Assembly: GCF_055900595.2 (NCBI RefSeq)
Contig: NZ_CM148325.1
Direction: 5' to 3' (one strand)
Length of the DNA stretch: 64,000 bases
Under the pieces are notes generated by a model, which was given only the letters and a program-made list of their open reading frames with translations, was not told the DNA's origin and did not search any database. Positions 57,743 through 61,568 of this stretch are shown here, one piece after another (position 1 is the first letter of the stretch; each line of letters opens with the position of its first letter). The position numbers were made by a program, and so were the translations under genes.

Positions 57743-59839
57743 TTAGCGGAAATTGACGCTTCGGTCGCTGGTCATGTCATACAACTGGAACTTACGCCCA
57801 AGTTGCTGACCACCGTCACGCGTCAGCGGCGTCCAGCCAATTGCCGCTCGGCTACGAGTCGGGCCAGACGAGAAGAGATCCAACGGTACAGAGATATACA
57901 CGCCTTTGGTGAAGTCCCCTTCGCCGTACTCCTCTTTCGAAACATTCGTGATCGTGGCATACCCACCCACCACCACGCCGCTGTCAAAGCGTTTGGCTAT
58001 TTCCAGCGTGCCGCCTTTATCCCCTGCCAGATACTGCCCGACGCTGGCTTTCACTAATACATCCTGAGCGAAAGATGGCGTCCAGTAGGCGGTCAAATGA
58101 CCAGTTTTCACGCTGTAATCGGTGAATTTCATCATATCTTTCGCACTACGCCAGTCGCGCTGTTTAACGTAGTTAGCATCCAGACCAAACGCCCAGTTGC
58201 TATCCAGCGGGCGATACAATACTTCTGCCCCCGCGCCGCCAAACATGGTTTCGAGATAACCACCGTAGACCTGACCGTAGAAGCCGTTGCCCAGATGCTG
58301 AAAGTAGTTGGCTTGCAGGTTATTCACATAGACATCATTCTGCACATACTCACGCACATGGGTACGAACGCGCGGTAAGTGCGAGTCCTGCGGTGGATTG
58401 GTGTAATTAAACTTGTCGTAATTGTTCGCCAGGTTAGCAAACAGGCTACCGGTGGTCAGCAGATGGTCCGTCAGCCACAAATCCGCCGTTCCCATCACGC
58501 CCAACTGGTACATGTAAAAGTTTTCCGGGCCCCCGACCGACTGGTTCAGCACCGGATCGATATGGAAATCAAAGCGCGATTTGTCGATATACCAGCCCTG
58601 CTCAGTGGACGCAGGAACTACCGGCTCGACGCGTTTTTGCGCCAGCGTCGTTTCGTGGCCCAACGGCTCTCCGGCAAGATGATTTTTCAGGCTGGCGACA
58701 TCGGTTTCCGTCGTCACCTGCGGCATGTTAAGGCGATTTTCTGTAACGCGGATCGTCTTGATCCCCTCCGGCAGATCGTTCATCACGATCCGATTAGCAC
58801 GGATGATCCCTTCACGCGAATCACGATATTTCACCTGCTCACCGGTGACGTACAGCGTATCGCCTTTCGTCTGGATCTGCGGATCGGCCAGTCCGGCGTT
58901 GTATTTCAACAGCGTTAACTGATTCGCCACCACCGAATGCTGCAAAATGGCATCCTGTGGTTGCGGTTGATATTGCGGACGGGCGTTATCATTGTAGGAC
59001 GGGCGTAGATCGTTAAAGTTGGTACGCAGCGTGACGCCAAACATAAAGGTGTTACCGCGTTCATAGCTAAGGTTAACGTCGGCCCAATCGGTAACGCGAT
59101 AAATCGCCCCGACGTTAAACTTACTTTTTTGCTCCAGCTTCCCGGCAAAATCCTGCTGATAATTATTGCCTTCATACTCCAGTTTCAGACGCAGCGGCTG
59201 CCAGGGCGTCTGGTATTCCACGCCGCCAAACAGTGAGGCCGGACCGTGGAACATCTGGCTGCCGTCGATAGATCCCGCTTGTTTGTAGCTGTTATCGCGA
59301 TAGCAATATTTGTCACTGGCTGAACAGAGCGGATTTTTCACGTTACCGCTGGTGCCCAGATATCCCCAGCCCAGGCCGAGCGTAAAATCGAATGGCCCCC
59401 AGGCTTTGCTGGCGACAAGATATTCCGCATCGAACAGCCCCGTACCGCCGATATCCCGCGCACCAACCGCCACCTGTGGCAGCCAGTAACTCTCTTCCCA
59501 TAAACGCAGTTTGAGATCGAAGGCTTTATCTTTATACGTTTGATCACCAGAGAACGCTTCGACGCTGCTGTACTGCCGAGTGCGCACATCGGTATAACGC
59601 AGCGTTGTTTCCAACCACGGGAAGAGTTGCACCGAAGCAGAGTAATAACGGTACTGATCGTTATCGCGATAGTTCAGACTCAACTCCCCTTCCCGCGCCA
59701 TGCGCGCGGTAGGTGTTTGTAATAATCCTACACCACCGAAATCCGATTGCGACGGACCAATGGGCGCAGGATATGTTTCGCCATAGCAAGCCGTGCTAAT
59801 GCCCAGCGCCAGTAAACTAAGCAGATGTCTTTTTTTCAT
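57743..59839 (-). CDS. yjbH: Outer-membrane lipoprotein/beta-barrel-like protein of the yjbEFGH exopolysaccharide operon (698 aa)
   Basis: ATG at 59839 overlapping the yjbG stop (TAATG); N-terminal lipoprotein-like signal ([10 protein letters not shown]); last gene of a four-gene minus-strand operon. Confidence 0.85.
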
Positions 59840-60576
59840 TATTGCGGTATCCGCTGCGTCAGAGTCTGAAGAATGTCGGCGTTAAGTGCATCAGGTGTCT
59901 CACTCCAGACGGAGTCCGCGAGGCCAACATAAATAATGCTGCCGGGCATCGGCTCTACGTGACGCTTGTTCCAGTAAGCCACCGGCGCTTTTTGCGTGCG
60001 TCCGTCCGGGTAAACCACCCACGCGTAGCTGCGATCCGCACCGCTGAGCAGGCTCTGGTCAGAGAGATAGCTCGCCACGTCGCGACCTGGAGTGAATGGC
60101 TGATTGCCAGGACGGCTGATAAGCCCGAATAACGTGACCGTGGACGGTGGTGGTCCGACCCACAGCGTGTAGTTGCCCTGCAACGGCGGGTTACCGCGTT
60201 CGGCAACGCGCACGATATCAGGATCAAGATTGATTTTTTGTCTGCCCGTCACCTTCAACGCCTGAATTTGCTGGCGTAAGGCGTTAATGGCGGCGGCATC
60301 GTCGGTGCTGGATTCTGAGGCCAGTTCTGCCAGCCTTGTCAGCAACGCCTGCTGCTGCCGTAATGCCGCCGCCGTTGCCAGCTCTTCGCTAATCACCGCA
60401 CCGGGCCACCAACTGTTTGCGAGCCGCGGTTGACCTACCAGATCAATTAAATGCTCTGCGCCTGTCAGCGTTTTGGCCTCATTGCTGCCATTACTGAACA
60501 CTTTGACGGTGCCTGCCGCAAAGACCGATGACGCTCCCACGCTCATAATCAACGCAGCAATAGTTTGTTTAATCAT
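59839..60576 (-). CDS. yjbG: Periplasmic protein of the yjbEFGH operon (245 aa)
   Basis: ORF 59839-60672 trimmed to ATG 60576 ([20 protein letters not shown] signal peptide); 4-nt overlap with yjbF. Confidence 0.8.
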
Positions 60577-61211
60577 TGTTTTGCCGCCTTGATGAGAGTG
60601 GTTTTCACCGGGAAATAATCCGCGCCGAGATACTGTTCCGACTGGCGAATTTGCCCTTCGCTGTCGATCCAATAGCGGTTATGCCAGCGTGCCTGGTCGG
60701 TGGAGACTTCTTCGTCCAGCACACGAACCGGAGTTTCATCGCTACCGACTTTGACGGTATCGGTGCCATCCCATTTGAAAACCGAGCGTGCGGTGGCGTA
60801 GCGCACCTGCTGGTACTCGGTCCAGCCCATCGTGCGCGTCCAGGTTGCGCCATCAACAATTTGTGCGGGTTTTATCAGCGGGTCGGCGGCAAGGTTATTC
60901 ACTTCAATCAGGTTGTCGCCGCCAAGCAAAGTCTTCACCAGACGACCATGTTGTGTGACGAGAGTGGCCTGATCCTGAGTGACCCATTTTTGTTGTCCAT
61001 CTTCAGCGAAGGCCAGCACCACAAACAACTGCGGCCCGCCATTAAGCTGCATGTACTGGCTGGCATAGGGCATATTTTGAATATCATCGTCCGTCAGCTG
61101 TACGCCTGGCGTACCGAACAGACTGTCCCACAGTGAATTGCCCAGCTCTTTAGTCGTGGCTGAACAGGCCTGTAATAGCAGGCAGATAAGAATGAGTGCA
61201 GGTCGCTTCAC
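60573..61211 (-). CDS. yjbF: Lipoprotein of the yjbEFGH operon (about 212 aa; start uncertain, GTG chosen)
   Basis: ORF 60573-61241; lipobox LLQAC near the N-terminus; start set at in-frame GTG 61211 to match the length I recall. Confidence 0.7.
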   Translation of the reverse strand: MKRPALILICLLLQACSATTKELGNSLWDSLFGTPGVQLTDDDIQNMPYASQYMQLNGGPQLFVVLAFAEDGQQKWVTQDQATLVTQHGRLVKTLLGGDNLIEVNNLAADPLIKPAQIVDGATWTRTMGWTEYQQVRYATARSVFKWDGTDTVKVGSDETPVRVLDEEVSTDQARWHNRYWIDSEGQIRQSEQYLGADYFPVKTTLIKAAKQ

Positions 61212-61325
61212 GACTCTTCTCCAGAGGGGCAGAATAACCACACCGGAGTGTGGTTATGGTTAATCCCCGTCATACTTCAAGCCACAGATGCGATGACTCG
61301 AATTATTTTAGGGATACATACTTTA

Positions 61326-61568
61326 TTACTGGGTACTGGTGGTTGTGGTTGTTGTGGTCCCGGTATTAGAACCATCACCGCCACCGGTTGCCGCGAGCGC
61401 GACACCCACCGCCGAGCTTACGGTGCTGACGCTGGTCGCGGAGGAGCTACCCGCCGAAACCGACGTTGCTGCCGCCCCTGCCGCTTCGCCCACCTGTACA
61501 GGTGCAGCCCACGCAGAAGTCGCCGCAAGCGCAGATATGGCAAAAATGCCATACAGAACTTTTTTCAT
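61326..61568 (-). CDS. yjbE: Small secreted low-complexity Ala/Ser/Thr/Gly-rich protein (80 aa), first gene of yjbEFGH
   Basis: ATG at 61568; signal peptide [21 protein letters not shown]; C-terminal ...[11 protein letters not shown]. Confidence 0.75.

Follow-up and report, generated by a model that had tools for sequence, protein, structure and literature searches.

The stretch of 64,000 nucleotides (nt) of contig NZ_CM148325.1 (NCBI RefSeq assembly GCF_055900595.2) that was analysed here as a whole, hereafter the window, carries on the minus strand of its positions 57743-61568 four co-directional open reading frames, yjbE, yjbF, yjbG and yjbH, the first of which encodes a small protein with a run of seven threonines (T7). 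The identity of the locus, proposed earlier in a sequence-only reading, was borne out by the synteny pgi-yjbEFGH-yjbT-psiE, which RefSeq annotates in a genome of 99.9% identity as well as in a K-12 derivative, by the matches of all four products far above the gathering thresholds of their own Pfam families (YjbE, YjbF, GfcC_N with GfcC_C, and YjbH), and by amino-acid identities of 96-99.5% to the K-12 derivative, from which YjbE differs at 1/80 residues, YjbF at 1/212, YjbG at 10/245 and YjbH at 5/698. NCBIfam gave no model for any of the four products. A megablast search with positions 57400-62100 located the locus in 5,413 of the 5,426 complete Escherichia coli genomes, annotated there as yjbE, yjbF, yjbG and yjbH. 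Thus, the locus is an operon known already, yjbEFGH of E. coli, and a paralogue of gfcABCD (Table 1). In K-12, where these genes are b4026-b4029 and where the operon was reportedly described by Ferrieres et al. 2007 (cited in PMC8592465 and PMC5461412), the four genes follow each other as in the window, with the same junctions, between pgi upstream and yjbT with psiE downstream. However, the nucleotide identity of the operon is just ~95-97.5%, the threonine tract has ACC or ACG in K-12 at places where the window has ACA, and xylE, which K-12 has between psiE and malG, is lacking beyond psiE in the window (56624-56718). Over 7.3 kb, the 3' end of the window (56715-64000) is 95.3% identical to K-12, whereas its identity to Escherichia whittamii is 93.9%; an assignment of the window to E. 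whittamii, suggested by the best match of YjbH, was rejected for this lower nucleotide identity. Alleles at 99% identity or more were found in just 14 of the 5,426 RefSeq E. coli genomes. Such divergence from both references, together with so few close genomes, places the window in a rare, divergent Escherichia lineage.

Table 1. Features of the yjbEFGH locus, with positions in the window
Feature	Position	Strand	Description
yjbE	61326-61568	-	80-amino-acid (aa) precursor, small low-complexity envelope protein; PF11106 (113.7 bits; cutoff 27.9); RefSeq name in the 99.9% identical genome
yjbF	60573-61211	-	212 aa, GTG start as in RefSeq; GfcB-like lipoprotein, LLQAC lipobox; PF11102, 215.7 bits
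yjbG	59839-60576	-	245 aa, periplasmic GfcC-like protein; PF20616 and PF06251
yjbH	57743-59839	-	698-aa outer-membrane protein, two beta-barrels (fold by model); PF06082, 900.8 bits
Seven-threonine tract, YjbE residues 71-77	61338-61358	-	ACC ACA ACA ACC ACA ACC ACC
Signal peptide (Sec, predicted), YjbE residues 1-21, followed by AP	61506-61568	-	by reading of the sequence: n-region with KK, then a hydrophobic core, and A-W-A ahead of the cleavage point
Conserved C-terminal half of YjbE, residues 51-80	61329-61418	-	mean per-position identity 0.95 against 0.84 for residues 22-50 (58 unique orthologues)
First spacer hairpin	61265-61313	-	~50-nt insertion seen in Escherichia; fold computed
Invariant hairpin ATAACCACAC-TCCG-GTGTGGTTAT, then TCTGCC	61234-61257	-	unique in the window; located behind yjbE, may terminate leakily or stabilise the 3' end
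ATGA overlap, yjbF stop/yjbG start (4 nt)	60573-60576	-	read from the sequence; ATGA in at least 57/79 species loci
TAATG overlap, yjbG stop/yjbH start (1-nt overlap)	59837-59841	-	TAATG or TGATG in 66/80 species loci
YjbH N-terminal 12-stranded barrel, residues ~52-274	59018-59686	-	
YjbH central alpha/beta periplasmic domain, residues ~301-389	58673-58939	-	helix-strand-strand-helix-strand-strand-helix in the AlphaFold2 (AF2) model
YjbH C-terminal barrel, residues ~401-698, 13 long strands	57746-58639	-	AF2 strand list
Promoter-proximal block TTTAGTTGTGTATACTCGAT with a TATACT -10-like hexamer	61624-61643	-	footprint, column conservation of 95% or more over 65 species; putative promoter
Distal block TGAGGTTAATCCTA	61818-61831	-	footprint; matches the RcsAB box consensus at 10/14 positions

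The operon has been described as Rcs- and osmotically induced, tied to an uncharacterised exopolysaccharide and paralogous to gfcABCD, with the 1-4 bp overlaps between its genes and the two-barrel outer-membrane protein YjbH/GfcD being also known (PMC8592465, PMC8346858, PMC9603273, PMC11494523, PMC5461412, PMC3599342). The Rcs (RcsA-RcsB) and osmotic induction concerns all four genes, reported as one transcription unit (PMC3599342, PMC5461412), and the operon is reported to be required for, or to stimulate, the production of the Yjb exopolysaccharide, which is distinct from colanic acid (PMC5461412). The earlier remark that the biochemistry of the system is poorly defined agrees with this literature (PMC8592465, PMC5461412, PMC11494523). 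The locus is already textbook-annotated, so that the observation that drew attention to it, correct as it was, adds nothing new as stated; what the analysis adds concerns mainly the constancy of the threonine run, the spacer behind yjbE and the fusions found among distant relatives.

The 3' end of yjbE reads GGG ACC ACA ACA ACC ACA ACC ACC AGT ACC CAG TAA, that is G-T7-S-T-Q, so that the protein has the seven consecutive threonines attributed to it but not at its very end, since S-T-Q follows the run. The sequence-only reading had considered this tract slippage-prone, which did not hold when its length was compared across strains and species. Of 60 yjbE genes sampled by rank spread from the 5,420 E. 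coli genomes that carry the gene, 58 were exactly 243 nt long, one was of 249 nt and one was split by IS1. A second rank-spread sample, obtained with a 171-nt query centred on a tract of nine threonines (T9), had the T7 length in 59/60, these 59 records being 6 nt shorter than the query; the same query matched 55 genomes at 99% identity or more, one of them among the sampled records. All of the 22 metagenome contigs recovered by a pattern scan permitting 2-12 codons between fixed flanks carry seven threonine codons. Among the YjbH-encoding loci from 80 Enterobacteriaceae species, 77 with yjbE upstream, the run is exactly T7 in 72/77, and the five other loci, those of four Kluyvera genomes and one Enterobacteriaceae metagenome-assembled genome, have T5-S-T3 or T5-S-T5. 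The 77 loci hold 52 nucleotide versions of the tract, with 2-4 codon variants and one amino acid at every threonine position. Such a fixed length with freely varying synonymous sites argues for selection acting on the protein, and the comparison thus indicates that the T7 run, rather than being a mutable repeat, is a functional motif constrained in length and under purifying selection.

The only length variant seen within E. coli is the 249-nt allele, which encodes nine threonines by means of one additional in-frame ACAACC unit. A second nucleotide version of T9 (ACAACC ACAACC ACGACC) occurs on other single-nucleotide-polymorphism backgrounds and gives the same protein, which means that T9 arose or spread more than once; its carriers amount to ~61-92 of the 5,420 genomes (1-2%). 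The T9 protein is WP_021575443.1, found in E. coli strains 126096, SW07091 and 675SK2, and many carriers are labelled ST361 or clinical carbapenemase isolates. The T9 allele and its repeated appearance, whether by slippage or by transfer, are what could be expected if the ACC/ACA tract were a simple repeat whose strain-variable length diversifies or switches a surface peptide, and the window's own allele even holds a perfect (ACAACC)x2. However, this explanation appears extremely improbable in view of the T7 length in nearly all of the sampled genomes, contigs and species despite the many nucleotide versions, and of the flanking residues, which are as invariant as the run itself among the 58 unique orthologues. 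Moreover, the repeat unit being of 3 or 6 nt, all changes stay in frame, so slippage could not switch yjbE on or off. The tract differs from a contingency locus also in that its repeat number rarely varies and its repeat is broken by synonymous changes.

The description of the first product as an 80-aa protein with a predicted signal peptide, made mostly of Ala, Ser, Thr, Gly and Val, stood: the mature part of 59 aa consists to 88% of these residues (T 22%, A 20%, S 19%, G 15%, V 12%). Its C-terminal half follows the order of a hydrophobic A/V/G stretch, GGGDGSN and then T7-S-T-Q. An arrangement of this kind, in which a G-D-G turn stands between the hydrophobic A/V/G stretch and an S/T tail with Q, R or M as its last residue, is also seen in GfcA and in the first-gene products of two distant operons. 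The latter two are both signal-peptide proteins in which small-residue repeats are followed by the hydrophobic A/V/G stretch, and in which a turn, acidic or G-D-G, leads to a tail rich in S/T (…PGTTTSTAPGTTTSTAGM; …GGDGDGTSASATSTATTTATSTTTSTTR). The Pfam YjbE model matches neither GfcA nor these two products. An exact look-up of YjbE and of nine synthetic T4-T13 variants in a collection of 15 billion proteins gave no match, the K-12 sequence being likewise absent from it, and the homologue search with the YjbE protein returned mainly frameshifted or partial entries, with the main cluster not among them.

The genes had also been called translationally coupled. The overlaps of yjbF with yjbG and of yjbG with yjbH are real, exceed what chance would give and are conserved across genera, the remaining yjbG/yjbH junctions of the 80 species loci being gaps of 0-2 nt or 4-nt overlaps, and these overlapping stop and start codons suggest that YjbF, YjbG and YjbH are probably made in fixed proportion. 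However, the coupling does not extend to yjbE, because a spacer of 114 nt with two hairpins lies between it and yjbF. In most other genera, the spacer measures just 60-65 nt and lacks the first of the two hairpins. The second one, in the exact form TAACCACAC-N4-GTGTGGTTA, was found in 78/78 species loci that include the spacer (among the set L027-L106), with the loops TTCG in 70, TGCG in 6, TCCG in one (E. whittamii) and CTCG in one, all except the last being UNCG tetraloops; TCCG is also the loop of the window. The stem is perfect, of 9-10 bp, and in most species it is followed by 3-4 U within the next 6 nt, where the window has just TTCTG. It remains constant although the adjacent spacer and the synonymous sites of yjbE vary, and, since it never varies, no covariation is possible. 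The yjbE-yjbF spacer folds with z = -3.25, and a hairpin stands at the same place after the paralogous gfcA, in the gfcA-gfcB spacer. No Rfam family was found for the spacer hairpin. A weak Rfam match to isrH (20.8 bits) was judged to be due to chance. The invariant hairpin may act by leaky termination or by stabilising the 3' end, and the amount of YjbE would thereby be uncoupled from that of YjbFGH; no link of yjbE to Term-seq was found in the literature.

A short, low-complexity frame at the head of an operon, followed by a conserved hairpin that could couple its translation to the downstream transcription, might also be a dispensable leader-type small open reading frame, whose translation mainly regulates yjbFGH and whose peptide has no function. 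This is highly improbable, because the amino acids of YjbE are conserved while its codons vary, which points to selection on the peptide; YjbE has a canonical, if predicted, signal peptide, and the distant operons have analogues with a different sequence and the same layout.

As to the downstream products, YjbF matches the Protein Data Bank (PDB) entry 2in5 (YmcC/GfcB; E = 3.1e-43) and, by this homology and by the cysteine of its lipobox as read from the sequence, is a predicted lipoprotein of the GfcB/YmcC type, while YjbG matches PDB 3p42 (GfcC; E = 1.7e-55 over residues 20-245) and belongs to the GfcC family. The identities to the products of K-12 gfcABCD are 32% for YjbE/GfcA, 39% for YjbF/GfcB, 43% for YjbG/GfcC and 65% for YjbH/GfcD. 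YjbH had no sequence-level match to any PDB chain. Its AF2 model (predicted local distance difference test, pLDDT, 88.5; predicted template modelling score, pTM, 0.85) has 12 + 13 strands and the published two-barrel fold, the structure prediction of YjbH as an outer-membrane barrel having been a check proposed earlier. In this model, YjbH is a member of the YjbH-GfcD two-barrel family, with a 12-stranded barrel, a central globular domain and a C-terminal barrel in a single chain, the central domain of the family having been described as globular or SLBB-like (PMC8346858, PMC9603273). The 12-stranded outer-membrane channels KdgM/NanC and FapF, the latter an amyloid exporter, resemble the first barrel. 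However, their sequence identity to YjbH is just 12-13%, and YjbH adds a second barrel and the periplasmic domain in the same chain. In GfcD, the C-terminal barrel has 13 strands, as in the YjbH model, and its missing 14th strand leaves a lateral opening (PMC11494523); the LptD-type lateral-gate mechanism proposed for GfcD comes from simulation only (PMC11494523), and the likeness of YjbH to such exporters comes from the model.

In another reading, YjbE would be the secreted cargo, an Ala/Ser/Thr/Gly/Val-rich fibre or amyloid-like subunit threaded through the FapF-like N-terminal YjbH barrel, with the exopolysaccharide phenotypes being indirect. The position of yjbE, first and set apart by a hairpin, is like that of the major subunits in pilus or curli-type operons, and Thr-rich peptides favour beta-hairpins (PMC11936462). 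However, the mature YjbE of just 59 aa shows none of the repeats that functional amyloids typically have, no structured YjbE came out of AF2, and the carbohydrate assays tie the operon to uronic-acid-containing material (PMC5461412), so that a fibre subunit is considered very unlikely.

The gfcABCD genes share with the yjb genes the overlapping B/C and C/D junctions, the hairpin after the first gene and a Thr-rich small first product with a signal peptide. However, GfcA is longer than YjbE (101 aa, 30% Thr) and has the tail STTTSTTR rather than T7, and the gfc operon of K-12 continues with gfcE-etp-etk, homologues of wza-wzb-wzc, none of which follows yjbH in the window; therefore, the window locus is the paralogue and not the gfc operon itself. 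The Gfc proteins handle the O-antigen capsule, being encoded by the group 4 capsule operon gfcABCDE-etp-etk (PMC8592465), whereas no such polymer is named for Yjb. GfcB and GfcC bind GfcD experimentally (PMC8592465, PMC9603273). The same YjbF-YjbG-YjbH module is present in Vibrio wbfB/C/D and in other YjbH-GfcD loci (PMC8346858, PMC9603273), which are often located beside outer-membrane polysaccharide export (OPX)/Wzz genes (locus L109), some of them with a small S/T-tailed first gene (L110, L112). While the window genes are separate but overlapping, many of the relatives have GfcC fused to YjbH, and some also PAP2. Thus, a HMMER search in 1.84 billion representatives gave 2,668 YjbH relatives, and among the 142 full-length YjbH proteins within the best 150 of these, 52 have an N-terminal extension of ~245 aa; by Pfam, GfcC domains occupy the N-terminal region of 7/8 long representatives, six of these seven being within the N-terminally extended group. 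Another extension, C-terminal and of 227-426 aa, is present in 12/142 (~8%) and proved to be a PAP2 phosphatase domain in 4/4 tested, with the motifs KxxxxxxRP, PSxH and SRxxxxxHxxxD intact (fusion examples P0054, P0056, P0083, P0107, P0111 and P0122; loci L107-L110). The GfcC-YjbH fusions support a physical YjbG-YjbH unit, and the PAP2 fusions point to a lipid-phosphate chemistry, in line with the lipid-anchored export model of GfcD (PMC11494523). No mention of GfcD together with PAP2 was found in the literature. Directly downstream of a distant, 47% identical GfcC::YjbH fusion operon, a gene for glucose-6-phosphate isomerase (PGI) was observed (L109 3530-5026; L110), and pgi also adjoins yjbE in E. 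coli, so that this proximity is kept over a large evolutionary distance.

YjbE, like GfcA, might also be an acceptor whose S/T tail is O-glycosylated, for example with the O-antigen or another undecaprenyl-linked glycan, and which is then exported or anchored by YjbFGH. The strict conservation of the S/T tail and of its fixed threonine number, the recurrence of S/T tails in GfcA and the distant first-gene products, the hint of the PAP2 fusions at undecaprenyl- or lipid-phosphate chemistry, and the O-glycosylation raised as a speculation for GfcA (PMC8592465) are all compatible with an acceptor role. However, neither the operon nor its neighbours (pgi, yjbT, psiE and malG) encode a glycosyltransferase or an oligosaccharyltransferase, and no O-glycosylation of YjbE or GfcA was found reported in the literature; the acceptor role is considered rather unlikely.

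The account that best joins these data is that yjbEFGH is, on balance, probably an Rcs-inducible outer-membrane export or assembly module, in which YjbE is a client or cofactor of a YjbFGH translocon that handles an externally made glycan. A Pfam scan of the four products gave no glycosyltransferase, polymerase or flippase, and the absence of biosynthetic enzymes from the operon speaks for export or assembly rather than for a biosynthetic locus, with the polymer coming from elsewhere. YjbH would be a single-chain two-barrel protein, in which a KdgM/FapF-like barrel of 12 strands is followed by an alpha/beta domain in the periplasm and by a laterally open barrel of 13 strands; YjbG (GfcC-like) and the lipoprotein YjbF (GfcB-like) would dock on YjbH from the periplasmic side. 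YjbE would be exported via its Sec signal peptide as a disordered small protein with a conserved C-terminal segment, and the spacer with the invariant UNCG hairpin may let it accumulate at an amount different from that of YjbFGH. Produced in the absence of YjbFGH, YjbE might be harmful or act as a signal. Together, they might handle a glycan, linked to a lipid or a protein, for which the enzymes of synthesis are encoded in another place.

Several points weigh against this export module or against parts of it. The 'Yjb EPS' (exopolysaccharide) was never chemically defined (PMC5461412). In one distant operon (L113), YjbF directly follows an unrelated gene with no small first gene, which means that a YjbE-like partner is not universal. 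The AF2 model of YjbE-(GGGGS)6-YjbH, a weak test with a 30-aa linker and a partly paired alignment, gave a pLDDT of 26-41 for YjbE and no sign of docking. A simple consensus terminator scan did not flag the hairpin at 61234-61257, the U tract of which is short, and in microarrays the fold-changes of yjbE resemble those of yjbF-H (PMC3599342), which makes a strong termination after yjbE unlikely. The search for the RcsAB box consensus with at most 3 mismatches gave no match upstream of yjbE, and the assignment of the distal block TGAGGTTAATCCTA to RcsAB is tentative, since it fails this search and agrees with the consensus only in part.

A bolder form of the export module, in which T7 and the invariant segment of YjbE are a length-measured part of the YjbFGH translocon, serving as acceptor of a glycan, as a plug or as a strand in the laterally open YjbH barrel, is regarded as unlikely. 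If it were true, the YjbE/GfcA-type peptides would be an unrecognised obligatory subunit or carrier of widespread outer-membrane polysaccharide exporters, and the PAP2 fusions would be a sign of detachment, at the outer membrane, from a lipid-phosphate carrier. As a separate matter, the candidate role of the YjbE tail in completing the 13-stranded YjbH barrel obtained no support from the linked AF2 model, a weak test owing to the linker trick and the invariant tail.

Of the outer-membrane systems without defined biochemistry, the modules of the yjbEFGH/gfcABCD type are among the most widespread, and their small first protein is the least understood component. The additions made here are modest: the T7 tail, fixed by selection, the separation of yjbE by an invariant UNCG hairpin, and the natural GfcC-YjbH-PAP2 fusions, which may be used as handles for experiments.

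Upstream of yjbE, phylogenetic footprinting among 65 species delimited three conserved blocks, two of which are the promoter-proximal and distal ones in Table 1. The third, the yjbE 5' leader GGGTAAATCTCCATTCATTCAATGAAGGGAAATTGTTATG (61566-61612, minus strand), is near-invariant in the 65 species around the Shine-Dalgarno sequence, and an imperfect inverted repeat in it, TCCATTCATT / AATGAAGGGA, could sequester the latter. The Rfam family STnc430, an enterobacterial small RNA candidate, matches the pgi-yjbE intergenic region at 61765-61913 on the plus strand, divergently from yjbE (72.1 bits against a gathering threshold of 47), and this match overlaps the RcsAB-like block and the bidirectional pgi terminator hairpin (61881-61903). 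Repetitive extragenic palindromic (REP) elements or bacterial interspersed mosaic elements (BIME) lie at 61979-62050 and 57228-57375, with Rfam naRNA4 scoring 74.7 bits at the pgi end and weaker copies being found between psiE and yjbT. Downstream of yjbH, the window continues with yjbT, REP elements, psiE and malG. The 47-aa 'hypothetical protein' annotated by RefSeq at 57274-57417 (minus strand) falls for most of its length within the second of these REP clusters and is unlikely to be a gene. IS1 is found repeatedly at these loci, with yjbE of strain EC25 being interrupted by IS1A (L003 1665-2684) and IS1D being located directly upstream of gfcA in K-12 (L111 8779-9546). An IS1 between yjbE and yjbF was also found in a published sedimentation mutant (PMC8117528).

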